The notes beneath the pieces are model-generated. The model saw only the letters and a program-made list of their open reading frames with translations. It did no database searches and had not been told where the DNA came from. Positions 39,389-64,000 of a DNA stretch of 64,000 bases are shown here, in pieces. Location: NCBI GenBank assembly GCA_046329115.1, contig JAXLVG010000010.1:84482-148481 (forward strand), written 5' to 3'. Each line of letters opens with the position of its first letter. The first letter of the stretch is position 1. The stretch comes from Flavobacteriales bacterium (GTDB lineage: Bacteria; Bacteroidota; Bacteroidia; Flavobacteriales_F; PHOS-HE28). The position numbers and the translations under genes were made by a program.

Positions 39389-39449
39389 GATGTCCGGTTA
39401 ACGTTCAACGATGGCCGAAAGTACTACCTTGCCTGCCACGCTGAAGTCC

Positions 39450-43430: not shown

Positions 43431-43433
43431 GGA

Positions 43434-43546
43434 AACCACAGAGGCCACACAGAACACAGAGAGATCCACATCCCACCCGCACACGCCCAAAGCCTCACAC
43501 GCGTGCATCGCGCATTGCCTCTGTGACCTCTGTGGCCTCTGTGGTT
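43434..43546. repeat. palindromic intergenic repeat element, CACAGAG-heptamer family, copy 1
   Basis: Left arm aaccacagaggccacacagaacacagagag, right arm cctctgtgacctctgtggcctctgtggtt, ~55-bp spacer. Lies between the aminotransferase and C-N hydrolase genes. Confidence 0.8.
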
Positions 43547-43557
43547 GATCGATCGAC

Positions 43558-45029: not shown

Positions 45030-48000
45030 TCAGGCCGTGACCACGCGGGCCTCGACCTTCCTGCGCTTGCGCCCGAAGCGGAACCCCGACACCTTCTCCA
45101 TCAACCGGGTCATGATGTAGTACATCGCCGGCACGATGAAGAGGGTGAGGATGAGCGAGCTGGTGAGCCCGCCGATGATCACCCAGGCCATGCCGTTCTT
45201 CACCTCGGCGCCGTCGCCGCTGGCCAACGCGATGGGCAGCATGCCGAAGATCATCGCCACGGTGGTCATGAGGATCGGGCGCAAACGCTCGCGACCCGCC
45301 TCCACCAGGGACTCGATCAGCCCCATGCCCTCGCGCCGCAGGTGGTTGGCGAAGTCGACGATGAGGATGCCGTTCTTGCTAACCAGGCCCAGCAGCATGA
45401 TGAGGCCCACGATCGCGAAGATGCTCAGGGGCTGCATCGAGAGCGCCAGGGCGAGGAAGGCGCCCACCAGCGCCACCGGGATGGAGAAGAGCACCACGAA
45501 GGGATAGAGCGCGTTCTCGTACAGCGCCACCATGATCAGGTACACGAGCAGGATGCCGAGCACGAGCGCCAGGCCCAGGCTGCCGAAGGCCTCGCCCTGG
45601 TTCTTCGCGTCGCCGAGGTAATCGATGATGATGCCGGGAGGCAGCTGCTCCCGGGCCATGGCCTTCTGGATCTCGGCCACGATGGTGCCGCTGGGGCGGC
45701 CCACGGCCGCGCTGTTGATGGTGATGCTGTTCAGGCGGTCGGTGCGTTGCAGCACGCTGTTGCCGAGCGTCTCGTACACATCGGCGAGCTGATCCAGCCG
45801 CACCGTGGCACCGCGGGCGTTCGTCACCATCAGGCCACGCACGCTCTGCACGTCCTGGCGGTCGGCCTGGTCCAGCCGCACGTTGATCGGGTACTCCTCA
45901 CCGGCCTCCTTGAACTTGAAGCGGTCGTTGCCACGGAAGGCGGTCTGCACCGCGATGCCGATGTCGTTGCTGGTGAAGCCGAGCGTGCCCATGCGGTCCT
46001 GGTCCAGGCGCACCTTCACCTCGGGCTTCGGACTGCGGGTGCTGAACTGCACATAGTCCGTGCCGGGCGTGCCCTCGGTGATGCGTTTCACGATGCGGGC
46101 GGCCTTCCACAGGCTGTCCATCTCCACCCCCTTCACCGCGATCTGGATCGGGGTCTGCGCGCTGCCGGTGATGTTGGTCTGCGTCACCGTCACCTTGATG
46201 CCGGGGATGGCGCCCAGTTCATCGCGCAGGAGGGTGCCGAACTGCTCCGAGGTGATCCGGCGGTCGTGCTTCGGCACCAACTTCACGTTGATCTCCGAGA
46301 GGTTGGCGTTCGCGCTCCCCGCAGCACCGCGCTGTCCGCTCTGGGTGCCCACGTTGGTGAAGGCGTCGATCACCTCGGGATACTTGAGGATCACGCGTTC
46401 GGCGGCCAGCGTGAGGCGGTCGGTCTCCGCAAGCGAGGCTTGGGGCGCGGTCTCGAGCTGCACCAGGAACTCGCCACGGTCGCTGGGCGGAATGAAGGTT
46501 GCGCCGATGAAACCCGCGGGCACCAGCGCGATGGCGGCGATGAGGAGCGCGAGGATGGCGGACAATACATAGCGTTTGCGACGAAGTGCCTTGCCCAAGG
46601 CGCGGCCATACCAGTCCTGCAGGGCGGTCACCCCGCGTTCGAAGGTCAGGCTGAAGCGGCCCCAGAGGGTGCCGGTGGTGAGATGCTCGAGCCTGCCCCA
46701 GCGCGAGGCGAGCAGCGGCGTGAGGGTGAAGGCCACCACCAGGCTCATGAGGGTGCTGATCACCACCACCAGGGAGAACTCGCGCAGGATGTTGCCGATG
46801 AGACCGCCGGTGAGCGCCAGGGGCAGGAACACCACCACGTCCACCAAGGTGATGGCCATGGCGGTGAAGCCGATCTCGTTGCGTCCTTCCAGCGCCGCGC
46901 TCCAGCGGGTCTTGCCCATCTCCAGGTGACGGTAGATATTCTCCAGCACCACGATGCTGTCGTCCACCAGGATGCCGACCACCAGCGACAGCGCCATCAG
47001 GGTCATCAGGTTCAGCGAGAAGCCGAGGGCGTACATCAGGATGAACGTGGGGATCATGGCGCTGGGCAGGGCCACCAGCACGAAGAGCGAGCTGCGAACG
47101 CTGTGCAGGAAGAGCAGCATCACCAGGCCCACGATGAGCACCGCGAGCATCAGGTCGTCCATCACGGCGTTGGCGCTGGAGAGCGTGTACAGGCTCTGGT
47201 CGATGGCGATGCGGTAGTCGAAGCCGGTGTCGGCGAGCTGCGTCTTCAGCTCGGCCAGGCGCTTCTTCACCCCCTGGCTCACCTCCACCGCGTTGGCATC
47301 GCTCTGTTTCACGATCTGCATGCCGATGCCGGGCTGCCCGTTGATGCGGTTGAAGGTGGTGGCCTCGCTTAGGCCGTCCATGACGGAGGCGACGTCCTTG
47401 AGCTGGATGCGCGAGCCGTCCGCGCCCTCGCGCACCACGGTGTTGCGCAGGTCCTCCACGGTGCCGGCGCGGGCATCGAGGTTGATGGAGAGCCGGTCGG
47501 CGCGGGTCTCCACGTTGCCAGCGGGGAAGGTGGTGCTGTTGGCGCCCACGGCCTGCGCCACCTGGGCCGGGCTGATGCCGTAGGCCTTGAGCTTGTCGTT
47601 GTCCATCACCACCTGGATCTCGCGCTGCTGCGCACCGATCAGGGTCACGCTGCCCACACCGCCCACGTTGCTGATCATGGGGGCCACGCGGTCGTCCAGC
47701 AGCTGGTACAGGTCGGCGGGCGCGAGGTTGCTGCTGATGCTCAGGCGCAGGATGGGGATCTCGTCGGTGCTGAAGCGGCGCACCACGGGATCATCGGCAT
47801 CCTCCGGCAACAGGGCGCGCACCTGGTCGATGCGGCGCTCGGCATCGCGCTGGGCGTCGTTCACATCGGTGCCCTGCTTCAGCGTGATGGTGAGGGCGGA
47901 CACCCCCTCGGTGCTGGTGCTGGTGATCTGGTCCACCCCTTCGATCGCGCTCACCGCGTCCTCGATGGGCTTGGTGAGCGTGTTCTGGACCTCCTCGGGC

Positions 48001-48164
48001 GACGCACCGCGGTAGGTGGTCTGCACCATGATCACGTTGGCCTCGAACTTGGGCAGCAGGTTGTAGTTGAGCTGCTTGTAGCTGAGGAAGCCGAACAGGA
48101 TCAAGGTGACGAAGATCACCGTGATCAGCAGCGGGCGTTTGATCGCGACTTCGGTAATGGACAT
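45030..48164 (-). CDS. efflux RND transporter permease subunit (AcrB/CzcA-like)
   Basis: The track ORF 45030..48197 starts with TTG; the ATG is at 48164 (MSITEVAIKRPLLITVIFV). ~1044 aa with 12 TM helices and two large periplasmic loops. Confidence 0.9.
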   Translation of the reverse strand: MSITEVAIKRPLLITVIFVTLILFGFLSYKQLNYNLLPKFEANVIMVQTTYRGASPEEVQNTLTKPIEDAVSAIEGVDQITSTSTEGVSALTITLKQGTDVNDAQRDAERRIDQVRALLPEDADDPVVRRFSTDEIPILRLSISSNLAPADLYQLLDDRVAPMISNVGGVGSVTLIGAQQREIQVVMDNDKLKAYGISPAQVAQAVGANSTTFPAGNVETRADRLSINLDARAGTVEDLRNTVVREGADGSRIQLKDVASVMDGLSEATTFNRINGQPGIGMQIVKQSDANAVEVSQGVKKRLAELKTQLADTGFDYRIAIDQSLYTLSSANAVMDDLMLAVLIVGLVMLLFLHSVRSSLFVLVALPSAMIPTFILMYALGFSLNLMTLMALSLVVGILVDDSIVVLENIYRHLEMGKTRWSAALEGRNEIGFTAMAITLVDVVVFLPLALTGGLIGNILREFSLVVVISTLMSLVVAFTLTPLLASRWGRLEHLTTGTLWGRFSLTFERGVTALQDWYGRALGKALRRKRYVLSAILALLIAAIALVPAGFIGATFIPPSDRGEFLVQLETAPQASLAETDRLTLAAERVILKYPEVIDAFTNVGTQSGQRGAAGSANANLSEINVKLVPKHDRRITSEQFGTLLRDELGAIPGIKVTVTQTNITGSAQTPIQIAVKGVEMDSLWKAARIVKRITEGTPGTDYVQFSTRSPKPEVKVRLDQDRMGTLGFTSNDIGIAVQTAFRGNDRFKFKEAGEEYPINVRLDQADRQDVQSVRGLMVTNARGATVRLDQLADVYETLGNSVLQRTDRLNSITINSAAVGRPSGTIVAEIQKAMAREQLPPGIIIDYLGDAKNQGEAFGSLGLALVLGILLVYLIMVALYENALYPFVVLFSIPVALVGAFLALALSMQPLSIFAIVGLIMLLGLVSKNGILIVDFANHLRREGMGLIESLVEAGRERLRPILMTTVAMIFGMLPIALASGDGAEVKNGMAWVIIGGLTSSLILTLFIVPAMYYIMTRLMEKVSGFRFGRKRRKVEARVVTA

Positions 48165-48236
48165 GGTTCCTGTTCTGTTGAACCGCTCGGGGGTCAAAGG
48201 GCTCCGTAGCGGCCGTTCACCTGCGTTGATCGATGA

Positions 48237-49316
48237 TCAGTGCTTGCCGCTCAAGCGCACCTTGCTTCCGTCCGTGAGGTTCAGCTGGCCGCTCAGCACC
48301 ACGGTCTCACCCGCGACCAGTCCCTTCAGCACCTCCACGCGCTCGCCCACTTCTCGGCCCAGTACCAGGTCGCGGCGTGTCGCGCGCAGGTCAATGCTGT
48401 CGCCCGTCACCGCGTACACGTACGGTGTCTTGATCCCTTCCGCCAGGGCCTCCTTGGGGATGGCGAGCATGCGCACGGCCTCGCCACCGGTGAAGCGCAC
48501 GCTGACGAAGGTGCCGCTCTTCAGCGGGTGCGCCTTGCCGTTCTGCACGGCCACCTCCACCAGGTAATTGTGGCTGGCATCGCCCCGCGGGCTCACGAAG
48601 GTCACCTTGCCCTGGAAGGTCTCCCCGGGGAACACATCGCTGGTCACCGACACGGCCAGGCCCTCCTTCACACGGTAGGCATCGCGCTCGCTCACGTGCA
48701 CCCGGGCCTTCAGGCGGCTCACGTCCACCACCTCCACCACGGCCGTGTTGGCGCCCACGTACTCGCCCACCTCCACGTTCTTCGCCACCACCACGCCGGT
48801 GACCGGACTGATCACCTGGGCATCGCGGATCTGTTGACGGATCTGGTCGGTGCGTACCTGCTGGTTCCGGTAGTTGTAGTGCACCTCGTCGTAGTTCGCT
48901 TCGGGCACGGCCTTGCCCTCGAACAGGTCCTTGTAGCGCAGATCGTCCTTCCGCAGCTTCTCCAGCGCGAGTTCGGCCGCCTCCAGTTCAAGCTGCTTCT
49001 GCGCCACGTCCAGGCTGCCGAGCACCTGTCCCTTGCTCACCCGCGAACCAAGGTCCACGTTGAGGCTGGCGAGCTTGCCCTGGGCCTGCACCATCACCTT
49101 TGCATGGTCGTAGGGCTCCAGCGTGCCCGGCACGGTGAAGGTGCCTTCCACGTCGGTGATCGCGGTGGTGAAGGCGGTCACCGGGATGGCGAACCCGCTG
49201 CGGTCCACGGGCTGTTTGGCCGCGTCGAGCTTCTTCTTGTTCGCGGCCAGTTTCAGGCCGATGCCCAGGGCCAGCGCGACCAGCACAAGGGGCAACATCC
49301 ATTTACGGTTCTTCAT
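48237..49316 (-). CDS. efflux RND transporter periplasmic adaptor subunit (membrane fusion protein)
   Basis: C-terminal 359 aa of ORF 48237..49757, from ATG 49316 (MKNRKWMLPLVLVALALGIG). Coiled-coil and beta-barrel MFP domains. The upstream part of the ORF is an artefact. Confidence 0.85.
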   Translation of the reverse strand: MKNRKWMLPLVLVALALGIGLKLAANKKKLDAAKQPVDRSGFAIPVTAFTTAITDVEGTFTVPGTLEPYDHAKVMVQAQGKLASLNVDLGSRVSKGQVLGSLDVAQKQLELEAAELALEKLRKDDLRYKDLFEGKAVPEANYDEVHYNYRNQQVRTDQIRQQIRDAQVISPVTGVVVAKNVEVGEYVGANTAVVEVVDVSRLKARVHVSERDAYRVKEGLAVSVTSDVFPGETFQGKVTFVSPRGDASHNYLVEVAVQNGKAHPLKSGTFVSVRFTGGEAVRMLAIPKEALAEGIKTPYVYAVTGDSIDLRATRRDLVLGREVGERVEVLKGLVAGETVVLSGQLNLTDGSKVRLSGKH

Positions 49317-49342
49317 GGCGCCGTGGCGTCTGTGGGGTTCGA

Positions 49343-50665
49343 TCAAAGTGTCTTGGCGTAGTCGAGCAGGGTGCCCTTCGCCTTCTCCAGGTCGATCAGG
49401 GCGATGATGCGGTTGAGGTGCGAGGTGACCCAGTTGTTGCGGGCCTCCTTCAACTGGTAGTCGGCGTTCAGCAGGTCGCTGAGGGAGGCCGTGCCCTGCT
49501 GGTACTTGAGGTTGGTGTTGGCGAACACGTCCTGGGCCAGTTGCAGGTTGGACTCGTCGCTCTCCACGTTGGCATTGCTGGCGAGCAGGCGCGTGTCGGC
49601 GTTCTGGTAGTCGAGCTGGAACCCGAGGATGTTGTCGCGCTGGCGCTCGCGGGCGTTCTCCAGGGCGATGCGGCTCTGCTGGATCTGGCTGCTGCGGCGC
49701 AGACCGCTGAACACCGGCACGTTCAGCTTCAGGCCGATCGAAGCGAAGTCGTACCACGAGTTGAAGCTGGCGCCCAGATCGTTGCCTTGGGCCATTGTTC
49801 CCACGCGGCCATAGGCGCTCAGGGTGGGGATGAAGGCGTTCCGCTTGCGGCGCAGATCGATGGACTGCATGAGCACGGATTGCTCGTCGAACTGGTAACT
49901 GAGCAGGTTGGCGGGTGCGAAGGAGGTGGCACTGGGCTGGCGCATGTTCTCCGAGGTCCGCTGCGGCTCCGTCAGCTCCAACGGCTCGCTGATGGGCATG
50001 CCGATGATGCGCTTGAGGCGGGCGACCGCGAGGTCGTAATTGGCCTGGGCCACCGTGCGCTGCGAGGCGATGTTCCGCCGTGTCACCTCCACGCGGTCCA
50101 CGTCCAGTTCTTGCACCACGCCCTTCGCCAAGCGCAACTGCAGGATGGGTACCAGCGCATCGTACTGCTTCAGGTTCTCGTCGAGCAGGCGTACCTGCTC
50201 CCGGTAGGTCTGGGCCTGCGCATAGGTGTGTGCCACATCGTACACCAATTGCTCCTCCACCTGCCGGGAACGGATGTCGGCCATCGCCTGGTTCGGGCGG
50301 CTGGCCTGGATACCGTTGAGCTGCGCCACGTCCACGAGCACCTGCTCGGCCTGCAGGTTCACGTTGGTGATGTACTGGGTGCCGAACTGCACCGGCGTGG
50401 GCCGGTCGCTGAACACACCGGCCGGCAGGATGGTGGTCTGGCGCTTCAGGTTGTCGTCCAGCTGCCCGTAGCCGTTCACCTGCGGGAGGTACCCGCTCAC
50501 GGCCTCCTGGGCCTGGGCATCGGCCCGGCGCCGTTCGTTCGCGGCGATGACCATGTTCGCACTGTGCACCCGACCGTAGTCGAGGGCCTCGCGCAGTGTG
50601 AAGGCCTGCTGGGCCTGGATGACAGAGGCACCGAATAAGGCGAGGGAAAGAATGCTGCTCCTCAT
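49343..50665 (-). CDS. TolC family outer-membrane efflux protein
   Basis: 440 aa with a signal peptide (MRSSILSLALFGASVIQAQQ) and two TolC repeat halves. Confidence 0.85.
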   Translation of the reverse strand: MRSSILSLALFGASVIQAQQAFTLREALDYGRVHSANMVIAANERRRADAQAQEAVSGYLPQVNGYGQLDDNLKRQTTILPAGVFSDRPTPVQFGTQYITNVNLQAEQVLVDVAQLNGIQASRPNQAMADIRSRQVEEQLVYDVAHTYAQAQTYREQVRLLDENLKQYDALVPILQLRLAKGVVQELDVDRVEVTRRNIASQRTVAQANYDLAVARLKRIIGMPISEPLELTEPQRTSENMRQPSATSFAPANLLSYQFDEQSVLMQSIDLRRKRNAFIPTLSAYGRVGTMAQGNDLGASFNSWYDFASIGLKLNVPVFSGLRRSSQIQQSRIALENARERQRDNILGFQLDYQNADTRLLASNANVESDESNLQLAQDVFANTNLKYQQGTASLSDLLNADYQLKEARNNWVTSHLNRIIALIDLEKAKGTLLDYAKTL

Positions 50666-51105
50666 TTCACGTCCCCGGAATTGGCTGTTTCATCCATCGT
50701 GCGCAGGACCTTGAGGAAGACCGACAGGTCCTTCTCCCCGATACCGCCGAGCACCTGCGCGAAGACCTTGGAGCGCAGCTTCGAGGCCTTGCGGTGGATC
50801 TCCTGGCCCGACCTGGTCACCACCAGGATCTTCCGCCGCCGGTCGTCCGGGTCCATCTGGCGCTCGATCCAGCCGGCCTGCTCCATCTCGTCGATCTGGC
50901 GCAGCATCACGCTCTTGTCCTTCGCGAAGTGGTTGGCCAGATCCGTCTGCACCGCCCGGCTGTTGGTGAGCAGGAAATCCAGCACGCCGAACTGCGGCAG
51001 CCGCAGCTCGGATCCGTGGCTGTCCAGTTCCACGGCCATGAGGCGCACCACGCTGCGCATGGTGGTGGGCAGAAGCTGTGCGATGTCGTCCGTTAGGATG
51101 CTCAT
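50662..51105 (-). CDS. MarR family transcriptional regulator
   Basis: ORF 50662..51159. ATG at 51105 (MSILTDDIAQLLP). Winged HTH. 4-bp overlap with tolC; first gene of the efflux operon. Confidence 0.8.
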   Translation of the reverse strand: MSILTDDIAQLLPTTMRSVVRLMAVELDSHGSELRLPQFGVLDFLLTNSRAVQTDLANHFAKDKSVMLRQIDEMEQAGWIERQMDPDDRRRKILVVTRSGQEIHRKASKLRSKVFAQVLGGIGEKDLSVFLKVLRTMDETANSGDVK

Positions 51106-51113
51106 GTCGATAG

Positions 51114-51174
51114 TTGCGTTCTGCAACGGCACAAATGTATGCATTGTTGTCTTTTGCAACTATTGCTTTGTGCC
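51114..51174. promoter_or_regulatory. AT-rich operator/promoter region upstream of the marR-tolC-MFP-RND operon with nested inverted repeats
   Basis: gttgcgttctgcaacggcacaaatgtatgcattgttgtcttttgcaactattgctttgtgcc contains GTTGC/GCAAC and GGCACAAA ... TTTGTGCC. Divergent from the decarboxylase gene. Confidence 0.4.
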
Positions 51175-51376
51175 TCTATTTGGGATGGACGGTTCCACAG
51201 GGCCCTCCAGTGGCGTATGCCGGCCATGGGTCCATGCGCCTCCCCCATGGGTCAACGGCGCCACGACCCCCTGACCCTCAAACGGTCCCACACGTATGTT
51301 CGCCCTTGGACCGCACCCGATCGATGGCGGTACCGCTTCCCTATCTTGTCCCGCACGGTCCCAGCCTGCCTTGCCC

Positions 51377-54136
51377 ATGCCCAACGCCACGGCCGTCCAC
51401 ACCCGCTCCCACTACAACGCCGCCCGGCGCCGGTCCCACACCTGGGACCAGTTGAAGCTGGCCTGCATGGACCTCGATGAAGGCCGTGGCACCCCGCAGG
51501 AGGTCGAGGCCATCCTGAAGGACCTCCACGCCATCGAGCTGTATTGGGCCTTCCCCGGCCGGGAAACGGTGCAGCAACTGAGTGACATGCTCCGCAGCAA
51601 GGAGCACCACGGGCTTCATCTTGCGGTGAACCACGTGGTGCGCATGCTCAGCAGCGGCTCGTTCCGCAGCGACACGGTGGCCATGCTCGATCCCCGCTCG
51701 GGGCGCAACGAGCTGCTCGCCGATGAGGCCGAAAAGCCGCGCCCCAACTACTTCGAGGTGCTTTTCGTCGACGACATCGACGACGTGGAGGAGGAGGCGC
51801 TGAAACAGAAGCTGAAGAAGGTCCGCGACAAGAGCGACGAGTTCGTGTACGACACCGTAGTGGTGCGCACCGTGCAGGACGCACTGATCGCACTCCTCTT
51901 CAACCACAACATCCAGGCGGTGGTGGTACGCTTCGGGGTGCCCTACCCCAGCAGCAACCACAAAGGCGTGCTGCGGGAGTTCACCCGTGCCATCGACGCG
52001 CTCAACCCCGGCGACATCGGCCGCGCCAACATGGGCCCCTACCTGGGCCGCATCTGCCGCTGGTTCCGCCCCGAGGTGGACCGCTACTACGTGACCGACA
52101 CGCCGGTGGACGGGCTGAAGGACACCACGCTGGCCACCTTCAAGCGCATCTTCTACCGCACCGAGGACCTCACCGAGTTGCACCTCACCATCCTGCGCGG
52201 CACGATGGAGAAGTTCGAGACGCCCTTCTTCACCGCGCTGAAGGACTACAGCCGCCGGCCCATGGGGGTGTTCCACGCCATGCCCATCAGCCGCGGCAAC
52301 AGCGTGTTCAAGAGCCGGTGGATCCAGGACTTCGGCGAGTTCTACGGCCGCAATCTCTTCCTGGCCGAGACCAGCGCCACCACCGGCGGCCTCGATTCGC
52401 TACTGCAGCCCACCGGTCCGCTGAAGAAGGCGCAGGAGCTGGCCGCGCGCGCCTTCGGTAGCCAGCACACTTTCTTCGCCACCAACGGCACCAGCACCAC
52501 CAACAAGATCGTGGTGCAGGCGCTGGTGGAGCCCGGCGACATCGTGCTCATCGACCGCGACTGCCACAAGAGCCACCACTACGGCATGGTGCTGAGCGGC
52601 GCGTACCCGGTGTACCTGCACAGCTACCCGCTCACCAAGTACAGCATGTACGGCGCGGTGCCGCTGTCGCACATCCGCGAACAGCTCTGCGCGCTGCGGA
52701 AAGGCGGGCGGCTGGACAAGGTGAAGATGCTGCTGCTCACCAACAGCACTTTCGACGGCGTGGTGTACAACGTGGAGCGCGTGATGGAGGAGGTGCTCGC
52801 CATCAAGCCCGACATCGTGTTCCTGTGGGACGAGGCCTGGTGGGCCTTCGCCCGCTTCAGCTACGTGCTGCGCCAGCGCACCGCGATGCACGTGGCCGCC
52901 AAGCTCGCCCGCAAGTACCGCACGCCCGAGTACCGCGCCGAATACGCCGCGCACATCAAGGGCCTGAAGAAGGGCGAGGAGCCGCGCCTGCCCGACCCCG
53001 ACAAGGTGCGCATCCGCGTGTACGCCACGCAGAGCACGCACAAGACGCTCACCTCGCTGCGCCAGGGCAGCATGATCCACATCTGGGACGAGGACTTCGT
53101 GAAGAAGAGCGAGGCCAGCTTCCACGAGGCGTACATGACGCACACCAGCACCAGCGCCAACTACCAGATCCTCGCCAGCATGGACGTGGGCCGGCGGCAG
53201 GTGGAGTTCGAGGGCTTCGAGCTGGTGGAGAAGGCCATCGAGCTGGGGCTGCTGCTGCGGCGTACCATCCGCGAGAACCCGCGGCTGAACAAGTGGTTCG
53301 ACATCATCACCATCGGCGAGCTCATTCCCAGTGAATACCGGCAGAGCGGACTGGACAGCTACTATCGCCGCGACCAGGGCTGGAACGCGATCGAGAAGGC
53401 GTGGGCCACGGACGAGTTCGCGGTGGACCCCACCAAGATCAACCTCTACACGGGCAAGACCGGGATCGACGGGGACACCTTCAAGAACAAGTTCCTGATG
53501 GACAAGCACCAGATCCAGATCAACAAGACCTCGCGGAACTCGGTGCTCTTCATGACCAACATCGGCACGACGCGGGGCTCGCTCGCGTACCTCACCAAGG
53601 TGCTGCTGCACATCGCGGACGAGCTGGAGGCGCGCAACGCCGGTTTCGAGCACGACGACAAGCGCGCACATCTGGCCCGGATCCGTGCGCTCACCGAGGA
53701 GATCCCGCCCCTGCCCGATTTCAGCAGCTTCCACCGCAGTTTCCAAGGCCAGCCCGGCGTGCCCGGCGGTGACCTCCGTTCCGCGTACTTCCTCGCCTAC
53801 GACGAAAAGCGATGCCGGCACGTGAAGCTCGACGCCGCGCTGGCCGAGATGAAACAGGGGGGCGAGCTGGTATCCGCCTCCTTCGTGATCCCCTACCCAC
53901 CGGGCTTCCCCGTGCTGGTGCCGGGGCAGGTCATCAACAAGGAGATCATCGACTTCCTCATCGCCATCGACGTGAAGGAGATCCACGGCTACCGCCCGGA
54001 GCTGGGCCTGCGCGTGTTCACCGATGCAGCACTGGGAAGGCAACGGACCACGACGGCCATGGGGGGGATGAAGCAAATGACAAGCTCCAAGTCCTACGTG
54101 TCAAGCCTCAAGACATCCGCACGCAAGAAGAAGTAA
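51377..54136 (+). CDS. Orn/Lys/Arg decarboxylase family protein, large AAT-fold type (~920 aa)
   Basis: ORF 51296..54136. ATG at 51377 (MPNATAVHT). PLP-binding STHK motif (YATQSTHKTLTSLRQGS) and DRDCHKSHH block typical of CadA/AdiA/SpeF-type decarboxylases. Long N-terminal wing-like region. Confidence 0.8.
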   Translation: MPNATAVHTRSHYNAARRRSHTWDQLKLACMDLDEGRGTPQEVEAILKDLHAIELYWAFPGRETVQQLSDMLRSKEHHGLHLAVNHVVRMLSSGSFRSDTVAMLDPRSGRNELLADEAEKPRPNYFEVLFVDDIDDVEEEALKQKLKKVRDKSDEFVYDTVVVRTVQDALIALLFNHNIQAVVVRFGVPYPSSNHKGVLREFTRAIDALNPGDIGRANMGPYLGRICRWFRPEVDRYYVTDTPVDGLKDTTLATFKRIFYRTEDLTELHLTILRGTMEKFETPFFTALKDYSRRPMGVFHAMPISRGNSVFKSRWIQDFGEFYGRNLFLAETSATTGGLDSLLQPTGPLKKAQELAARAFGSQHTFFATNGTSTTNKIVVQALVEPGDIVLIDRDCHKSHHYGMVLSGAYPVYLHSYPLTKYSMYGAVPLSHIREQLCALRKGGRLDKVKMLLLTNSTFDGVVYNVERVMEEVLAIKPDIVFLWDEAWWAFARFSYVLRQRTAMHVAAKLARKYRTPEYRAEYAAHIKGLKKGEEPRLPDPDKVRIRVYATQSTHKTLTSLRQGSMIHIWDEDFVKKSEASFHEAYMTHTSTSANYQILASMDVGRRQVEFEGFELVEKAIELGLLLRRTIRENPRLNKWFDIITIGELIPSEYRQSGLDSYYRRDQGWNAIEKAWATDEFAVDPTKINLYTGKTGIDGDTFKNKFLMDKHQIQINKTSRNSVLFMTNIGTTRGSLAYLTKVLLHIADELEARNAGFEHDDKRAHLARIRALTEEIPPLPDFSSFHRSFQGQPGVPGGDLRSAYFLAYDEKRCRHVKLDAALAEMKQGGELVSASFVIPYPPGFPVLVPGQVINKEIIDFLIAIDVKEIHGYRPELGLRVFTDAALGRQRTTTAMGGMKQMTSSKSYVSSLKTSARKKK

Positions 54137-54139
54137 GCC

Positions 54140-55843
54140 ATGAGCAAGAAGACCAAGGCGACCGCGAAGAAGACCCCGGCCCGCCGCAAGGCCGCCAAGA
54201 AAGCCCCCGCCAAGCGCACGGCACGCAAGGCTGCGAAGCCCGGAACGAGCCGACCGGTGAAGAAGACCGCTACGAAGAAGAAGGCGCCGGTCAGGAAGCT
54301 GGTAGTGCGCAAGAAGAGCGTTTCGCGACGCCAGCCCAACGGGCGGGTCGAGGCCCGGCGTGGCAGCGCCGCACTCAAGGGCATCAGCGACATCCGGCGC
54401 TTCTTCCACCGCAACGAGGTGCCGCTCTATTTCATCAGCGCCACCAACTTCAACCTGCTGGGCGCGGACGAGTGGATCAAGGGCTTCAAGTTCATCACCT
54501 ACATCGACTGCTTCGACGGGCTGCACCCCAACCTGATGAGCCCGCGCACCGAGGAACCGCACGAGGAGTTCCAGAGCATCGAGGACATCAACAACTACCT
54601 GCTCACGCACAGTGAGGTGCGCGACTTCATCGAGAGCAGGAGGATGAGCGGGAAGACCGCAGGGAAGGCCCTATTCCTGATGTTCGATGAGAAGACCGAA
54701 GCGCTGGCGAAGAAGGCCGGGCTCGAGGTGATCTTCCCGCCCGCCAAGCTGCGCAGCTGGCTGGACAACAAGGTGAACACCAACCGCGTGGCCGAGAAAG
54801 CCGGCGTGCCTTGCGTGCCCTATGTGCTCAGTCCCGTGAAGAACTACGCGCACCTCCTGCAGGTGGCCGCGAAGGGCAAGCTCGGCAGCGACCTGGTGGT
54901 GCAGACCCCCTACGGCGACAGCGGCCACACCACATTCTTCATCAAGAACGAGGCGGAGTACGCCAAGTACGCCAAGGAGATCGAGGCGGAGAAGGAGTGC
55001 AAGATCATGAAGCGCATCAACTGCCGCGGTGCGGCCATGGAGGCCTGCGTCACGCGGCACGGCACCATCGTGGCCCCGTTGATGACGGAGCTGGTGGGCT
55101 TCAAGGAGCTGACCCCGTACAAGGGCGGCTGGTGCGGCAACGAGATCTACGCCGACACCTTCACGCCGGAGATCCGTGCGAAGGCCCGCCGCTATGCGCG
55201 CAAGTTCGGCGACCAGCTGCTGAAGGAGGGCTACAAGGGCTACTTCGAGCTCGACTTCCTGATCGACACCGACAACGGCGAGATCTACCTCGGCGAGCTG
55301 AACCCGCGCGTGACCGGCGCGAGCTCCATCACCAACCACGCCGCCTTCGCCCTGGCGGACGCGCCGCTCCACCTCTTCCATACGCTGGAATGGATGAACG
55401 TGCCGTACGAGCTGAGCGTGAACGCGCTGAACCGGCGTTGGAGCGATGAGCGCAACATCGACAGCTGGGGCCAGATGGTGATCAAGTACACCGCCGATGA
55501 TGTGCAGCGCGTGACCGACGCGCCCCGCAGCGGCATCTGGCGCATGCGCGACGACGGCAGCATCTACTTCTGGCGCATGGACACGCACCGTCGCTATGTG
55601 GAGAAGGACAACGAGGCCTTCTTCCTGCGGATCACGCGTCCCGGCGACTGGTTCTACGAAGGTGCCGACATGGGCATCCTGGTGATGCGCGACCGCATGA
55701 TGACCGACGACTTCCAGCTCACCGAACGCGCCAAGAAGTGGCTGGCGGCCATCCGCGGGCAGTTCAAGAGCATGGCCCCCGGAGCGCATGGCACCAACGG
55801 GCATGAGCACCTGCTGGAGGTGGGCGGGTTCAAGATGATGTAA
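54140..55843 (+). CDS. ATP-grasp domain protein (carboxylate-amine ligase type) with a ~70 aa Lys/Arg/Ala-rich N-terminal tail
   Basis: 567 aa. N-terminus MSKKTKATAKKTPARRKAAKKAPAKRTARKAAKPG... ATP-grasp core with a CPSase-like ELNPRVTGASS motif. Starts 4 bp after the decarboxylase stop. Confidence 0.7.
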   Translation: MSKKTKATAKKTPARRKAAKKAPAKRTARKAAKPGTSRPVKKTATKKKAPVRKLVVRKKSVSRRQPNGRVEARRGSAALKGISDIRRFFHRNEVPLYFISATNFNLLGADEWIKGFKFITYIDCFDGLHPNLMSPRTEEPHEEFQSIEDINNYLLTHSEVRDFIESRRMSGKTAGKALFLMFDEKTEALAKKAGLEVIFPPAKLRSWLDNKVNTNRVAEKAGVPCVPYVLSPVKNYAHLLQVAAKGKLGSDLVVQTPYGDSGHTTFFIKNEAEYAKYAKEIEAEKECKIMKRINCRGAAMEACVTRHGTIVAPLMTELVGFKELTPYKGGWCGNEIYADTFTPEIRAKARRYARKFGDQLLKEGYKGYFELDFLIDTDNGEIYLGELNPRVTGASSITNHAAFALADAPLHLFHTLEWMNVPYELSVNALNRRWSDERNIDSWGQMVIKYTADDVQRVTDAPRSGIWRMRDDGSIYFWRMDTHRRYVEKDNEAFFLRITRPGDWFYEGADMGILVMRDRMMTDDFQLTERAKKWLAAIRGQFKSMAPGAHGTNGHEHLLEVGGFKMM

Positions 55844-55845
55844 AT

Positions 55846-55925
55846 GCGAGTGGCGAGTAGTGAGTGGCGAGTAGTGAGTGGTAGCTGCAGCGGCAGACTC
55901 ACCACTCACTACTCGCCACTCGCCA
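55846..55925. repeat. long GC-rich hairpin built from 7-bp units (gagtggc/gagtagt) between the ATP-grasp and C45 genes
   Basis: gcgagtggcgagtagtgagtggcgagtagtgagtgg [tagctgcagcggcagac] tcaccactcactactcgccactcgccactcc. The arms pair over ~27-34 bp, with no T-run after the stem. Confidence 0.7.
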
Positions 55926-55938
55926 CTCCTCGAACGAA

Positions 55939-56940
55939 GTGAGAGCGATGTACGTCCACCTGAAACTCGTCAAGGAACCCTGGCCCAGCGACCGCTGGCA
56001 GAAGTTCTTCGACCATGCCTGGCCCCTGTTCCGCATCTGGTACGAGAGCGAGGGACTGGAGAAACGCCCCGACCAGGCGACCTGCCGGAACATGCTGGAG
56101 CTGCACATGCCGGAACTGATCCCGGTGTACAACAGCCTGTGCCGCCTGGCGAACAACGACGATGTCGCCTCGCGCTTCCTGAGCATGTGGAACCCGCCGC
56201 CCTACATGGCCGGGTGCTCGCAGGTGGCGTGGACCAAGGGCGCGCCCACCCTCATCCGCAACTACGACTTCGACCCGCGCTACTTCGATGGGCGCCTCCG
56301 CTACACCGAGTACTGCAAGCCCGTCATCGGCATCCAGGACAGCGCCTGGGGCCTGCTCGACGGCATGAACGTAGACGGCCTGGCCGTATCGCTGGCCTTC
56401 GGTGGCCGCAAGGTGTGGGGCTCCGGCTTCGGCATCCCGCTGGTCATCCGCTACGTGCTGGAGACCTGCAGCACCACCGATGAAGCGTGCGCTGTGCTTT
56501 CCCGCATCCCGGTGCACATGGGGTACAACGTCACCGTGGTGGATAAGAGCGGCAAGTACGCCACCGTGTACATGAACCACGACAGGCCGGCCCAGGTGAT
56601 CTACCAGGCCGTGGCCTGCAACCACCAGCACCAGGTGGAGTGGGACGAGTACGCCGCCTTCACCCACACCATCGAGCGCAAGCACCACCTGGAGCACAGC
56701 ATCGCGCAGCCCAAGCTCACTCGGGCCGCGCTCATCAAGCAGTTCCTCAAGCCACCGCTGTACAGCCAGCAATACCTGCGCGGCTTCGGCACGCTGTACA
56801 CCGCAGCCTACGACGTGGCCAAGGGCCGGGTGCAGATCATCTGGCCGGACAAGCAGGTGGAGGCGAGCTTCACGCGTTTCGAGGAGCAGGAGGTGCAGGT
56901 GGTGCTGTTGAGGCCGGTGGGGAGGTACTTGGCGAAGTAG
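55939..56940 (+). CDS. C45 family Ntn-hydrolase (acyl-CoA:6-aminopenicillanic-acid acyltransferase-like)
   Basis: GTG at 55939, ATG at 55948 (MYVHLKL). Probable nucleophile Cys in MAGCSQVAW. ~330 aa, the size of C45 autoproteolytic acyltransferases. Confidence 0.6.
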   Translation: MRAMYVHLKLVKEPWPSDRWQKFFDHAWPLFRIWYESEGLEKRPDQATCRNMLELHMPELIPVYNSLCRLANNDDVASRFLSMWNPPPYMAGCSQVAWTKGAPTLIRNYDFDPRYFDGRLRYTEYCKPVIGIQDSAWGLLDGMNVDGLAVSLAFGGRKVWGSGFGIPLVIRYVLETCSTTDEACAVLSRIPVHMGYNVTVVDKSGKYATVYMNHDRPAQVIYQAVACNHQHQVEWDEYAAFTHTIERKHHLEHSIAQPKLTRAALIKQFLKPPLYSQQYLRGFGTLYTAAYDVAKGRVQIIWPDKQVEASFTRFEEQEVQVVLLRPVGRYLAK

Positions 56941-56968: not shown

Positions 56969-57055
56969 GAACCACAGAGGCCACAGAGAACACAGAGGAC
57001 AGCGTTCAACACCACTCATGGCATTTCTCTATGCCCTCTGTGCTCTCTGTGGTTC
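56969..57055. repeat. palindromic intergenic repeat element, CACAGAG-heptamer family, copy 2
   Basis: gaaccacagaggccacagagaacacagagg ... cctctgtgctctctgtggttc. Directly upstream of, and overlapping, the GxxExxY track ORF. Confidence 0.8.
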
Positions 57056-57081
57056 AGTTGGATGAGCGCGGCGAATGCACA

Positions 57082-57492
57082 GCGATGAACTCCACCATGA
57101 ACAAGTCCTGGTCATACAATGAGCTCAGTGGAGAGATCATTGGCGCTGCGATCGAAGTGCATCGGGAGCTCGGTCCTGGGTTGCTCGAAAAGGTCTATGA
57201 GGAGGCGCTTTGTCATGAACTACGACTGCGCGGCATCCCGTTCAGGCGTCAGGTCCTTGTGCCTGTTCTTTACAAGGGTGCTGAGCTGAAGGCTCCCTGT
57301 AAATGTGATCTCTGGGTTGCCGGAATGATCATCGTGGAGAACAAAGCGGCATCCGCGTTGACCCCGATCGATGACGCACAATTATTGGGATACCTGAAGC
57401 TCATGGACCAAAGGCTCGGCCTCCTGATGAACTTCAATGTCAAGTTCCTGAAGCAAGGCGTCCGCCGTATTGTGAACGGTTCGTTGGAATGA
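57082..57492 (+). CDS. GxxExxY family protein (PD-(D/E)XK-like small protein)
   Basis: ORF 57031..57492. The first 17 codons lie within a repeat element. Likely start MNSTMNKSWSYNELSGEIIGAAIEVHRELGPGLLEKVYEEAL at 57082 or 57094 (G-x-x-E-x-x-Y signature). GC is clearly lower than in flanking genes. Confidence 0.65.
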   Translation, partial: AMNSTMNKSWSYNELSGEIIGAAIEVHRELGPGLLEKVYEEALCHELRLRGIPFRRQVLVPVLYKGAELKAPCKCDLWVAGMIIVENKAASALTPIDDAQLLGYLKLMDQRLGLLMNFNVKFLKQGVRRIVNGSLE

Positions 57493-57602: not shown

Positions 57603-59048
57603 ATGCCCGCCACGCTCACCTCCCTCTTCACCCCCGCCAACCTGATCAACGGCTCCTGGTCGTTCGAGGGCGATGGCACCTTCAACACGGTCGTGGACAA
57701 GTACCACGGCACCGAGTTGGCCCGGATACCCCACGCCACCGAGGCGCAGATGGAGGAAGCGATCGCCGCGGCATATGCCAGCCGTGACGCGCTCCGGAAG
57801 ACGAGCGCCGGGGAGCGCAGCGCGAAGCTGGATGCGCTTGCTGACCGGATCGCGAAGCATGAAGCGGAGGTCGTCGAGCTGATGGTGAAGGAGGCCGGCA
57901 AGCCGATCGGTGCGGCACGGATCGAGGTCGCGCGCAGCATCACCACGGTGCGGACAGCCGCAGCGGAGGCCCTGCGTTTCAGCGGTGAGGTGACGCCGAT
58001 GGACTTCGGCGCCGGTGCAGGGAAGACCGCCTTCACGAAGCGCTTCCCCATCGGCGTTATCGCCGCTATCACGCCCTTCAACTTCCCGCTCAACCTCGTG
58101 CTGCACAAGGTGGCCCCGGCCATGGCAGTGGGCTGCCCCGTGGTGCTGAAGCCCTCACCCCAGGCGCCGCTCTGCTCCTACGTGCTCGCACGCTTCATGG
58201 AGGAGATCGGGTGGCCGAAGGGCGCCTTCCACGTACTGATGTGCGGTGTGCCCGTGGCCGAGAAGCTGGTGAAGGACGAGCGCGTGGCCATGCTCAGCTT
58301 CACCGGCAGCGACAAGGTGGGCTGGCACCTGAAGAACATCTGCGGCAAGAAGAAGCTCGCCCTGGAGCTCGGTGGCAACGCGGCGGTGATCGTGGACGCC
58401 GGCGTGGACCTCGCCGCAGCGGCGAAGACCGTGGCCGCCGGAGCGAACGCGTACGCGGGCCAGACCTGCATCAGCACACAGCGCATCTATGCGGTGAAGA
58501 GCGTCTCCGCGACTTTCCGTGACCTGCTCGTGAAGGAGTACGCAGCGCTGAAGGCCGGTGATCCGAGCGATACGCAAGTGACGGTGGGCCCCATCATCGA
58601 CAAGGGCCATTTCGAGCGCATCGGCAGCTGGGTGGATGAAGCGGTGAAAGGCGGCGCCACCCTGCTCGCGGGTGGCAAGCCGGTCGATGCGGATCGCAAC
58701 GTTTACGCCCCCACCCTGCTCACCGACACGAAGAACAGTATGCGCGTGAGCTGCGCCGAGGTCTTCGGGCCGGTCGCGGTGATCGAGGAGGTGGCCGACT
58801 TCGACGAGGCCATCGCCCGGGTGAACGACAGCACCTACGGCCTGCAGGCCGGCGTGTTCACCGACTCTGTGGCGCACATGAAGAAGGCCCACGAGGAGCT
58901 GGAGGTGGGCGGCGTGATCATCGGCAATGTGCCGGGCTTCCGCATTGACAGCATGCCCTACGGCGGCATCAAGGACAGCGGCCTGGGGCGTGAAGGCCTG
59001 AAGTACGCGATGGAGGAGATGAGCGAGCCGCGGTTGCTGGTATGCTGA
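57603..59048 (+). CDS. NAD(P)-dependent aldehyde dehydrogenase family protein
   Basis: 481 aa. Catalytic Cys region (GQTCISTQRIY), ELGGNAAVIV, and the Glu-containing LELGG block. Confidence 0.9.
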   Translation: MPATLTSLFTPANLINGSWSFEGDGTFNTVVDKYHGTELARIPHATEAQMEEAIAAAYASRDALRKTSAGERSAKLDALADRIAKHEAEVVELMVKEAGKPIGAARIEVARSITTVRTAAAEALRFSGEVTPMDFGAGAGKTAFTKRFPIGVIAAITPFNFPLNLVLHKVAPAMAVGCPVVLKPSPQAPLCSYVLARFMEEIGWPKGAFHVLMCGVPVAEKLVKDERVAMLSFTGSDKVGWHLKNICGKKKLALELGGNAAVIVDAGVDLAAAAKTVAAGANAYAGQTCISTQRIYAVKSVSATFRDLLVKEYAALKAGDPSDTQVTVGPIIDKGHFERIGSWVDEAVKGGATLLAGGKPVDADRNVYAPTLLTDTKNSMRVSCAEVFGPVAVIEEVADFDEAIARVNDSTYGLQAGVFTDSVAHMKKAHEELEVGGVIIGNVPGFRIDSMPYGGIKDSGLGREGLKYAMEEMSEPRLLVC

Positions 59049-63046: not shown

Positions 63047-64000
63047 ATGGTCACGCCACCTGTGTTCACGGACCAGCACATGGAACGGCTGCGCGCCTTC
63101 CATGCGAACGGGGCCACACGCCCGGCCACTTTCCGCCGCAAGGCCTTGCAGGCGCTTGACCGGTCGCTACGCGCCGAAGAGAACGCGTTGCTCGCGGCCA
63201 TGCACGCGGACATGGGCAAGCCCGTGTTCGAAGCGTACATGAGCGATGTGGGCCTCGTGTACAAGGAACTGAACCATGCGCTGGAGCATCTGGACGCATG
63301 GATGCGGCCCACCGCGGTGCCCACGCCCACCGCGCTGCAACCCGCGTCCAGCAAGGTGCACAAGGAGCCGCTCGGCGTGGTGCTCATCATCGCACCCTGG
63401 AACTATCCAGCACTGCTGCTCCTGTCCCCGCTCATCGGCGCCATCGCCGCCGGCAACTGCGCCGTGGTGAAGCCGAGCAACGAGGCGCCGCGGACCGCTG
63501 CGGTACTGGAACGCATCGTACGGAACGCGTTCGCGGAAGAGCACGTCACCCTGGTGCAGGGGCCCGGACGATCGATCGGCCCCGCGTTGATCGAACGGCA
63601 TCGCTTCGACCACATCTTCTTCACCGGAAGTGCGGCGGTGGGTGCGCAGGTGATGGCGATGGCCGCGCGGCACCTCACGCCCGTCACCCTGGAGCTGGGT
63701 GGCAAGAGCCCGGCGATCGTGGACCGCCGCGTGGACCTGCGGGTGGCGGCAGGGCGCGTGGCCTGGAGCAAGTTCTTCAACGCCGGACAGACCTGCATCG
63801 CCACCGATCACGCCTTCGTGCACGCGGACGTCCTTGAGCCGTTCCTGCAGGAATTGCAGCGGTCCGTGCAGCGCTTCTACGGCAGCGATCCGCGCCAGAG
63901 CCCGCACTTCGCGAGGCTGGTGAACACGCGGCGCTTCAACACTGTAAAGGGATACCTCGGCGAGGGCCGCATCCACATCGGCGGGGAGCACGATGCGGGT
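63047..64000 (+). CDS. aldehyde dehydrogenase family protein (ALDH3-like), 3' end beyond the window
   Basis: Open frame from ATG 63047 to the window end; it has no stop, so it is absent from the ORF track. MVTPPVFTDQHMERLRAF...EPLGVVLIIAPWNYPA...VTLELGGKSPAIVD...NAGQTCIATDH are ALDH signatures. Confidence 0.8.
   Translation, partial: MVTPPVFTDQHMERLRAFHANGATRPATFRRKALQALDRSLRAEENALLAAMHADMGKPVFEAYMSDVGLVYKELNHALEHLDAWMRPTAVPTPTALQPASSKVHKEPLGVVLIIAPWNYPALLLLSPLIGAIAAGNCAVVKPSNEAPRTAAVLERIVRNAFAEEHVTLVQGPGRSIGPALIERHRFDHIFFTGSAAVGAQVMAMAARHLTPVTLELGGKSPAIVDRRVDLRVAAGRVAWSKFFNAGQTCIATDHAFVHADVLEPFLQELQRSVQRFYGSDPRQSPHFARLVNTRRFNTVKGYLGEGRIHIGGEHDAG

Follow-up and report, generated by a model that had tools for sequence, protein, structure and literature searches.

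Rv2531c of Mycobacterium tuberculosis, a long member of the ornithine/lysine/arginine decarboxylase family, was reported in PNAS in 2026 to be inactive on Lys, Orn and Arg and to convert L-glutamate to gamma-aminobutyrate (GABA). The purified enzyme requires Mg2+, has a kcat of 69 per second, a K0.5 of 509 mM and a Hill coefficient of 4, and shows hysteresis; its deletion abolishes 84% of the GABA and all 13C-glutamate labelling of GABA (PMC13506015). Residues H405, K406, R576, T606, R718 and N731 were implicated in the binding of pyridoxal phosphate (PLP) or substrate, and sequences of Flavobacterium and Salegentibacter share the similarity-network cluster of the enzyme (PMC13506015). The gene neighbourhood is not discussed in this paper or in a second one on Rv2531c (PMC13506015, PMC12329521). 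Here, we describe the neighbourhood of a homologue in a stretch of 64,000 nucleotides from a Flavobacteriales bacterium (the window), where its gene is followed by those of an ATP-grasp enzyme and of a C45-family amidohydrolase or acyltransferase with an N-terminal Cys nucleophile. We found that these three genes lie in the distal part of an ancestral operon, which comprises seven genes and is conserved across Bacteroidota. The explanation that we favour, with a probability of about 0.5, is that the operon encodes a GABA shunt built on an Rv2531c-type decarboxylase and extended by an amide module that comprises the ATP-grasp enzyme, the C45 enzyme and a carbon-nitrogen (CN) hydrolase.

Two described pathways come close to this gene set. 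The canonical GABA shunt (GadB, GabT, GabD) has the same three chemical steps as those predicted for the operon, but the decarboxylase of the operon belongs to the Orn/Lys/Arg decarboxylase family instead of the GadB group, four additional genes are conserved (among them that of a putative ATP-dependent ligase), and the aldehyde dehydrogenase (ALDH) of the window is not of the succinate semialdehyde dehydrogenase (SSADH) type. The Puu pathway of Escherichia coli comprises the same set of functions (ligase, conversion of amine to aldehyde, ALDH, amide hydrolase and GABA transaminase) and ends in GABA, then succinate. It differs in having the glutamine-synthetase-type ligase PuuA and the class-I amidotransferase-type hydrolase PuuD in place of an ATP-grasp and a C45 Cys-Ntn enzyme; moreover, the window lacks a PuuB-type oxidase, and the amine would come from a glutamate decarboxylase where the Puu pathway starts from a diamine. 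What the decarboxylase subfamily does has already been published; its occurrence in an operon, with GabT-like, ALDH, ATP-grasp, C45, CN-hydrolase and VOC genes around an Rv2531c-like one, is not covered in the two papers on Rv2531c, and our literature search found none on the ligase/hydrolase module.

The window decarboxylase matches the Pfam domains OKR_DC_1 (PF01276, E=1e-77) and OKR_DC_1_C and scores far below the cut-offs of the NCBIfam models LdcC, CadA, SpeF and AdiA (e.g., 208 vs 968). Its best solved relative by far is Rv2531c (PDB 9n0n/9n0o, 800 bits; also 9n0p). Residues 41-918 align to residues 21-906 of Rv2531c in a single alignment of 886 residues with 45% identity, which spans all four domains, including the extra N-terminal domain that lies ahead of the wing domain. 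The PLP lysine is kept: Lys583, in the motif QSTHKT, aligns with K570 of Rv2531c and with the STHK motif of AdiA and CadA. Five of the six residues named in the Rv2531c study are identical (His424, Lys425, Arg589, Thr619 and Asn743) and the sixth shows a conservative change of Arg to Lys (R718 to Lys730). When 68 long-form homologues were aligned with E. coli AdiA and CadA, Arg589, Lys730 and Asn743 were invariant in 68/68 of them, and the residues found opposite in AdiA/CadA were Ser, Glu/Asp and Thr/Glu, respectively; the Rv2531c study attributes contacts with the carboxylate of the substrate to residues of this pocket. All six positions are invariant in the homologues of Bacteroidota and Proteobacteria. 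Membership of the window protein in the Rv2531c subfamily of glutamate decarboxylases is strongly supported by these comparisons, and it is most likely an L-glutamate decarboxylase, producing GABA from Glu, instead of a Lys/Orn/Arg enzyme. The open reading frame (ORF) extends from 51296 to 54136, with an alternative upstream ATG at 51296; since most homologues begin at residue 28-30 of this ORF (median homologue length 919.5 amino acids), the ATG at 51377 is the likelier start, as in the initial annotation of this region.

The decarboxylase can also be found alone, as is presumably the case of Rv2531c. A tblastn search of plasmids retrieved ~40 long-form decarboxylases; for ~17 of these (Ensifer, Phyllobacterium, Rhizobium sp., Rhodobacter and two S. 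meliloti plasmids), the plasmid record that holds the decarboxylase gave no match to the ATP-grasp enzyme. We inspected two of these neighbourhoods. In Ensifer adhaerens (L173:6008-12471) and Rhodobacter sp. CZR27 (L174:7926-14242), the decarboxylase, which keeps the same pocket residues, is flanked by one or two genes of the AspT family ("aspartate-alanine antiporter"). This is an arrangement of the classical precursor/product-antiporter type, and the transporter family takes its name from an acidic amino acid, which suggests that the substrate of the decarboxylase is a free acidic amino acid and that the ATP-grasp enzyme is not required. The pair may in itself be a proton-consuming system of glutamate/GABA exchange, which would be new for this decarboxylase family.

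The partners of the decarboxylase in the operon would fit a GABA shunt. The five best NCBIfam matches of the class-III aminotransferase are all models of 4-aminobutyrate transaminases, and its score with TIGR00700 is just under the equivalog level (488 bits, cut-off 506.65); its counterpart in the Bacteroidota locus L014, encoded at the equivalent position, shares 77% identity with it. The ALDH is of the SSADH type in most Bacteroidota loci (NF006915, 491 bits). Enzymes of the three types needed for the shunt (a probable glutamate decarboxylase, a GABA-type aminotransferase and an SSADH-type ALDH) are co-encoded in the ancestral operon. The window and its close relatives have a lactaldehyde-dehydrogenase-like ALDH, which in the window is ~28% identical to that of most loci (e.g., L057:13215-14573). 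The presence of two unrelated ALDH subfamilies at a fixed position of the operon points to a non-orthologous replacement. Taken together, the likeness to Rv2531c, the AspT-family neighbours, the GABA-transaminase-like aminotransferase and the SSADH-type ALDH of most loci make a backbone leading from glutamate to GABA, succinate semialdehyde and succinate the most likely interpretation. This part of the explanation is well supported, although the aminotransferase falls just short of the equivalog level and the ALDH of the window is of another type.

To assess co-conservation, we scanned one genome per GTDB species with the ATP-grasp protein. This returned 80 loci from Bacteroidota (Flavobacteriales, Cyclobacteriaceae, Saprospiraceae, Salegentibacter, Maribacter, Brumimicrobium, Flavobacterium and others), and the ORFs in their 10-kb flanks were clustered to identify recurrent genes. 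The recurrent order is class-III aminotransferase, CN-hydrolase, small VOC protein, decarboxylase, ATP-grasp, C45 and ALDH. Adjacencies were counted in the 78 other genome loci, taking as denominators those with enough flanking sequence. The decarboxylase gene is immediately upstream of the ATP-grasp gene in 55/70 loci and nearby, but not adjacent, in a further 11/70; C45 is immediately downstream in 48/75; and 22/55 loci have all seven genes. The ALDH gene comes after the ATP-grasp/C45 genes in 56/80 loci, the VOC gene lies between those of the CN-hydrolase and the decarboxylase in 50 loci, and the aminotransferase gene is upstream of the decarboxylase gene in most Bacteroidota loci. Some lineages have an APC permease gene between the decarboxylase and ATP-grasp genes, or that of an Lrp/AsnC or Crp regulator upstream. 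We rejected the hypothesis that adjacency reflects chance or an accident in a single lineage, given these counts and the occurrences on proteobacterial plasmids. A protein of 234 amino acids without Pfam or NCBIfam match is encoded close to the ATP-grasp gene in L040, L055 (11452-12156), L056, L071 and L078; in L040, L055, L056 and L071 it occupies the position of C45, between ATP-grasp and ALDH.

These results bear on the initial annotation, which had singled out the decarboxylase, ATP-grasp and C45 genes as a candidate pathway. The three ORFs are present on the + strand (Table 1), tightly packed (3 nucleotides separate the stop of the decarboxylase gene from the start of the ATP-grasp gene) and strongly co-occurring across genomes, so that the lack of co-conservation that would have counted against the candidate was not observed, and our literature search found no paper describing this combination or a module of ATP-grasp, C45 and CN-hydrolase. 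The cluster had been delimited too narrowly, at 51377-56940: three genes at 42099-45017 had been missed. It had also been described as flanked by aldehyde dehydrogenases. Both ALDH-like stretches of the window are downstream and none is upstream, and the one starting at 57603 belongs to the cluster.

Table 1. Genes of the seven-gene cluster and neighbouring features in the window.
Feature	Coordinates	Strand	Remarks
Lamin-tail + Big_5 protein (876 aa)	39411-42041		Adjoins the ancestral operon on its upstream side
Class-III aminotransferase, GABA-transaminase-like (443 aa)	42099-43430	+	PF00202 E=4e-116; opens the ancestral operon
Carbon-nitrogen hydrolase, nitrilase-superfamily amidase (324 aa)	43558-44532	+	PF00795 E=5e-31
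Small VOC/glyoxalase-fold protein (162 aa)	44529-45017	+	Weak PF00903 match, 21.9 bits
MarR/outer-membrane factor/membrane-fusion/RND efflux operon	45030-51159	-	Pfam ACR_tran, HlyD_D23, OEP, MarR
MarR gene, heading the efflux operon	50662-51159	-	Divergent from the decarboxylase gene
Long-form four-domain PLP decarboxylase, Rv2531c subfamily (919 aa)	51377-54136	+	OKR_DC_1, OKR_DC_1_C
ATP-grasp enzyme, NF005096/PRK06524 (567 aa)	54140-55843	+	NCBIfam 769 bits
C45-family N-terminal-Cys Ntn amidohydrolase/acyltransferase (333 aa)	55939-56940	+	PF03417, NF040521; alternative start 55948
GxxExxY/PD-(D/E)XK-3 small protein	57031-57492	+	PF13366, TIGR04256; outside the system
NAD(P)-dependent aldehyde dehydrogenase (481 aa)	57603-59048	+	PF00171 E=2e-140; last gene of the conserved cluster
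Second ALDH-like stretch	about 63128-63994		Downstream of the cluster

The ATP-grasp enzyme exceeds the cut-off of the NCBIfam model NF005096/PRK06524 "biotin carboxylase" (769 bits, cut-off 684), and its match to the Pfam domain CPSase_L_D2 is marginal (20.1 bits). The folds nearest to its AlphaFold2 (AF2) model (pLDDT 67) are those of biotin carboxylase (BC), whose domains come first, PurK and carbamoyl phosphate synthetase (CPS), at 10-18% identity and a TM score of about 0.5. It shares with these enzymes the fold and the nucleotide/Mg2+ site with Lys and Glu-x-Asn-x-Arg, and the residues K211, Q255, G262, T265, E386, N388, R390 and H414 are invariant across 36 sequences of 24-47% identity. 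Yet, it differs from BC at key places: the BC motif EMNTRIQVEH reads ELNPRITGAS, the equivalent of Glu296 is Ala, and Lys159 of the BC ATP site is replaced by a Gln that is invariant in the family. With the models of AccC and pyruvate carboxylase, whose cut-offs are 600-1100, it scores 23-33 bits. Among the recurrent annotated neighbours in about 170 loci from four collections, we found neither a biotin carrier nor a carboxyltransferase. We rejected the possibility that this is a biotin carboxylase of primary metabolism, given the scores far below the BC cut-offs and the change of Glu296 to Ala; the name given to NF005096 should be taken as a label for the family, not as an assayed function.

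The family is large. It comprises 317 clusters at 50% identity (E<=1e-30), in which the members with taxonomy are one Allobranchiibius and one metagenome-assembled genome (MAG) of Pseudomonadota. Homologues number in the thousands; the best 120 are 72-95% identical to the window protein and come mostly from high-G+C Flavobacteriales MAGs, and identity between Bacteroidota and Proteobacteria is ~60%. The basic Lys/Ala/Pro low-complexity tail noted in the initial annotation is present, but at the N-terminus (about residues 1-75), not the C-terminus; the N-terminal extension of Bacteroidota homologues has a median of 50 amino acids with ~29% K+R. Extensions of distant homologues revealed no informative fusions, just low-complexity, basic or membrane-anchor-like tails. 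Such Lys/Ala/Pro-rich, histone-H1-like tails occur in three proteins of the window: at the N-terminus of the ATP-grasp enzyme (54140-54365), at the C-terminus of the VOC protein (44920-45017) and at the N-terminus of a DksA/TraR zinc-finger protein (36614-37516; tail at 36614-36700). The actinobacterial homologue of Allobranchiibius (P0124) bears a similar one.

The C45 protein scores above the cut-offs of its family (PF03417, E=3e-33, 116 bits vs 23.2; NF040521, 160 bits vs 85). Isopenicillin-N acyltransferase and Drosophila Tan, a beta-alanyl-amine hydrolase, are examples of C45 enzymes. The window protein shares with characterised members the nucleophile Cys and the Arg/Asp/Asn residues: Cys93, Arg107, Asp110, Asn197, Asn228 and Arg247 are kept in >=95% of 62 homologues, and autoproteolysis is predicted at Gly92-Cys93. 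It has no close characterised relative, though, a search of PDB sequences with it gave no significant match, and the constant pairing with an ATP-grasp enzyme is new for the family. The amides cleaved by characterised C45 enzymes have short omega-functionalised acyl groups. One such enzyme is the desuccinylase AzsT (PMC10445470).

The CN-hydrolase has kept the triad Glu44-Lys109-Cys142 and Glu117 in >=95% of 61 homologues. Its best PDB relatives are remote (mouse Nit2 omega-amidase, 1e-20; N-carbamoylputrescine amidohydrolase, 3e-18) and it is far below the cut-offs of all specific NCBIfam models, the best being N-carbamoylputrescine amidase with 83 bits. It is 53% identical to the CN-hydrolase of the Shinella cluster described below and 58% to the one that adjoins the ATP-grasp gene in Cupriavidus. 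Judging from these alignments, the predicted catalytic residues are intact in the C45, CN-hydrolase and ATP-grasp enzymes. The VOC protein, which ends in the basic Lys/Ala/Pro-rich tail, matches Rv0577 and uncharacterised proteins of the glyoxalase family in the PDB.

Contexts outside Bacteroidota were identified by tblastn against plasmids, followed by annotation of the matches. In Roseobacter and Pseudorhodobacter, the loci include gabT and then CN-hydrolase, decarboxylase, ATP-grasp, C45 and peptide-type ABC transporter genes. On symbiosis plasmids of Rhizobium leguminosarum and S. meliloti we found decarboxylase, ATP-grasp, C45, an SBP5 ABC transporter and an amidase, with an RpiR regulator also present in the two annotated Rhizobium loci. 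Cupriavidus necator N-1 has no decarboxylase in its locus, which encodes a PuuC-like ALDH, an MFS transporter, an SBP5 ABC transporter, CN-hydrolase, ATP-grasp, C45 and a MocR/GabR-like regulator. In Shinella, Roseateles and Sinorhizobium sp. RAC02, divergent CN-hydrolase and Lrp genes are followed by those of an APC permease, USP and an agmatinase-family enzyme and, onward, of 5-guanidino-2-oxopentanoate decarboxylase, ALDH, ATP-grasp, C45, D-amino-acid dehydrogenase, a racemase-like protein and RidA. This Shinella-type cluster is a complete route from D/L-arginine through 2-ketoarginine and 4-guanidinobutyrate to GABA, with no free diamine. ATP-grasp followed by C45 is thus an adjacency found in Bacteroidota, Rhodobacterales, Rhizobiaceae and Cupriavidus, and most annotated contexts of the pair converge on the production of GABA, from glutamate or from arginine/agmatine.

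Two of these loci deserve separate mention. On the R. leguminosarum symbiosis plasmid (L086:1-5139, 6201-11471), nifHDKE are the immediate neighbours of the decarboxylase, ATP-grasp and C45 genes, which are followed by the peptide-type ABC transporter, amidase and RpiR regulator. As GABA is abundant in nodules, the proximity to nif genes may point to a role there. In Shinella, the protein annotated as alanine racemase (L084:12779-14566, 595 amino acids) is a fusion of Ala_racemase_N (fold-type III PLP) with an arginase-family domain, and it sits within the arginine-catabolic cluster that holds ATP-grasp/C45.

A more distant ATP-grasp subfamily was retrieved from soil metagenomes with an alignment of 8 ATP-grasp sequences (the 36-sequence one being too diverse). 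Here, the ATP-grasp gene is followed by that of a beta-lactamase-fold serine hydrolase, not C45, in 58/80 loci, and preceded by ALDH and then agmatinase-family genes in 15-16 loci; some also have a copper amine oxidase or an APC permease. The exchange of C45 for another hydrolase suggests that the invariant unit is an ATP-grasp enzyme with an amide hydrolase. In the soil loci L092-L171 (e.g., L092:1678-3129), the beta-lactamase-fold hydrolase has repeated N-terminal "TGAIPV" motifs, and the ATP-grasp proteins P0122, P0149 and P0173 carry an N-terminal membrane-anchor-like segment and a Pro-rich linker.

The explanation that best accommodates these observations is as follows. The long-form decarboxylase would convert L-glutamate to GABA, the aminotransferase GABA to succinate semialdehyde, and the ALDH the latter to succinate. 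The ATP-grasp and C45 enzymes, usually with the CN-hydrolase, would form a separate mobile module, in which an amide of GABA, or of a closely related omega-amino or guanidino acid with 4 carbons, would be made by the ATP-grasp enzyme as an ADP-forming ligase and later cleaved by the C45 Cys-Ntn amidohydrolase, the CN-hydrolase or both. The logic of the module would resemble that of PuuA/PuuD in putrescine catabolism or of carnosine synthase with the Tan hydrolase. An amide-forming ligase with an amide hydrolase, as initially proposed, still seems the most reasonable interpretation of the pair; the polyamine conjugate that had been proposed as its product does not, since the evidence on the decarboxylase makes GABA the likely metabolite.

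We have low confidence in this accessory role, which is weakly inferred from context, and several points weigh against the explanation as a whole. Neither ATP nor a ligase nor additional hydrolases are required for a plain GABA shunt, and a ligase and a hydrolase acting on the same bond would make a futile cycle, unless there are intervening steps or C45 acts as a transferase. The structures nearest to the ATP-grasp enzyme are the carboxyphosphate-forming BC, PurK and CPS, not amino-acid ligases (in a comparison based on a model of moderate quality, pLDDT 67). The glutamate decarboxylase activity is a prediction from a protein just 45% identical to the window enzyme, and with the K0.5 of 509 mM measured for Rv2531c free glutamate is perhaps not the best substrate. 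Finally, the ALDH of the window itself is not of the SSADH type.

In one alternative, ligation precedes decarboxylation. The ATP-grasp enzyme would attach a group to an amino acid, making for instance a gamma-glutamyl amide or an N-omega-(carboxyacyl)-Orn/Lys, and the decarboxylase would act on the conjugate; the amine formed in this way would be oxidised by the aminotransferase and ALDH, and the group would be removed by C45 or the CN-hydrolase. GABA or succinate would thus be reached under amide protection, and free glutamate would be a poor surrogate substrate of the decarboxylase, in keeping with the K0.5, the need for Mg2+ and the hysteresis of Rv2531c. Such a scheme gives a role to each of the seven genes, is consistent with the closeness of the decarboxylase and ATP-grasp genes (3 nucleotides apart in the window, adjacent in 55/70 loci), and its conjugates would fit an Arg/Lys pocket that could equally hold the distal carboxylate of a longer side chain. 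Francisella FslC, which decarboxylates N-citryl-ornithine, is a precedent, as is the desuccinylase AzsT for the C45 step. However, the two gene sets can be uncoupled: ~17 of the ~40 long-form decarboxylases of plasmids have no ATP-grasp match on the same record, the two that we inspected pair with acidic-amino-acid antiporters while keeping the same pocket residues, and the ATP-grasp/C45 pair is also found without the decarboxylase. Purified Rv2531c, moreover, makes GABA from Glu itself, with a kcat of 69 per second. We regard this order of steps as unlikely.

The initial annotation had proposed a Lys/Orn/Arg decarboxylase producing a di- or polyamine. In this Puu-like scheme, the product would be putrescine, cadaverine or agmatine, which the ATP-grasp enzyme would acylate or gamma-glutamylate in the manner of PuuA; the aminotransferase and ALDH would oxidise the free end, and C45 would deprotect it like PuuD. 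The operon does hold an analogue of every Puu step (ligase, amine-oxidising enzyme, ALDH, amide hydrolase and GABA transaminase), and loci that lack the decarboxylase include some with agmatinase-family enzymes, a PuuC-like ALDH, copper amine oxidase/FAD oxidase and APC permeases. The decarboxylase speaks against it: none of Lys, Orn and Arg is a substrate of Rv2531c, the characterised relative with which it belongs; it has a cationic pocket, with Ser or acidic residues at the corresponding positions of AdiA/CadA; its partners are of the GABA type; and it associates with an antiporter family named for aspartate/alanine exchange. The arginine route of the Shinella-type cluster also reaches 4-guanidinobutyrate without a free diamine. 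A diamine pathway is improbable in view of these data.

We find it similarly hard to credit that the ATP-grasp enzyme is a biotin-independent, bicarbonate-dependent N-carboxylase, or that it forms a carbamate as PurK or CPS do. The nitrogen activated would be that of an amine, ureido or guanidino group (in GABA, urea or 4-guanidinobutyrate), and C45 and the CN-hydrolase would hydrolyse the product, in an ATP-driven deamidation analogous to those of urea amidolyase or guanidine carboxylase. The closest folds are indeed BC, PurK and CPS, and the motif ELNPRITGASS resembles EMNPRVSRSS of CPS. Several neighbours would also fit: the agmatinase-family, urea-releasing gene immediately upstream of the ATP-grasp gene in 15-16 soil loci, the amidase-signature enzyme of the Rhizobium clusters, and the CN-hydrolase, whose best NCBIfam match is N-carbamoylputrescine amidase, though at 83 bits. 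Yet, the Bacteroidota and Rhizobium clusters have no urea- or guanidino-producing enzyme, the equivalent of BC Glu296 is missing, and a likeness of folds at 10-18% identity and a TM score of about 0.5 leaves the chemistry unfixed.

Very improbable, finally, is an amidotransferase in which the CN-hydrolase (or the Rhizobium amidase) would be a glutaminase giving ammonia to the ATP-grasp enzyme for the amidation of a carboxylate, with the by-product glutamate feeding the decarboxylase: NAD synthetase does have a CN-hydrolase domain as its glutaminase, in Cupriavidus the ATP-grasp gene comes directly after that of the CN-hydrolase and the released glutamate would tie the module to the decarboxylase, but the CN-hydrolase gene is two genes from ATP-grasp in Bacteroidota, divergent and ~8 kb off in Shinella and undetected by similarity search in Rhizobium or soil loci, and there is no sign of an ammonia channel or complex.

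The window differs from most relatives in the integrity of the operon. The efflux operon headed by MarR and divergent from the decarboxylase gene, already recognised in the initial annotation and matching Pfam families, separates the VOC and decarboxylase genes, which adjoin in L014, L019 and most Bacteroidota loci. It therefore looks like a lineage-specific insertion of 6 kb, outside the system, that split the ancestral operon. The closest relative, L002, is the only one with a MarR match directly upstream of the decarboxylase gene and, like the window, has the VOC gene ~6 kb further upstream. Homologues of the GxxExxY gene occur in only a few close relatives (L006, L009, L011 and L019), at differing intergenic positions, which suggests that this gene is another lineage-specific insertion, between C45 and ALDH, of a small mobile or selfish gene. 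A scan for sigma-70 promoters and terminators gave counts at or below shuffled expectation. The Lamin-tail/Big_5 protein upstream is probably secreted or exposed at the surface, and unconnected with the cluster. The G+C content of the window is 62-69%, except for one stretch at 59%, and a contig identical to that of the window was also found in a JGI metagenome.

These results have consequences for both parts of the operon. The claim made in 2026 that long decarboxylases of the Orn/Lys/Arg family are glutamate decarboxylases is so far based on a single enzyme, from a mycobacterium, whose K0.5 is 0.5 M, and the operon provides independent genomic support for it from another phylum. The operon also draws attention to a large and highly conserved family that an NCBI model labels "biotin carboxylase" without the key defining features. 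The pair of ATP-grasp enzyme and amide hydrolase is spread over >300 sequence clusters, in Bacteroidota, Alpha- and Betaproteobacteria and at least one Actinobacterium. Tentatively, and at well under even odds, we propose that this pair, with the CN-hydrolase, catalyses an unrecognised ATP-consuming step in the metabolism of GABA or of 4-carbon omega-amino acids. This step may be a biotin-independent N-carboxylation or belong to a branch of the GABA shunt with amide protection, and it may also be what lets the long-form glutamate decarboxylases, with their odd kinetics, work efficiently in vivo. A ligase and amide-hydrolase module that recurs in GABA-producing routes, including those on rhizobial symbiosis plasmids next to nifHDK, offers a concrete lead to a reaction not yet described in the metabolism of GABA, glutamate or arginine.

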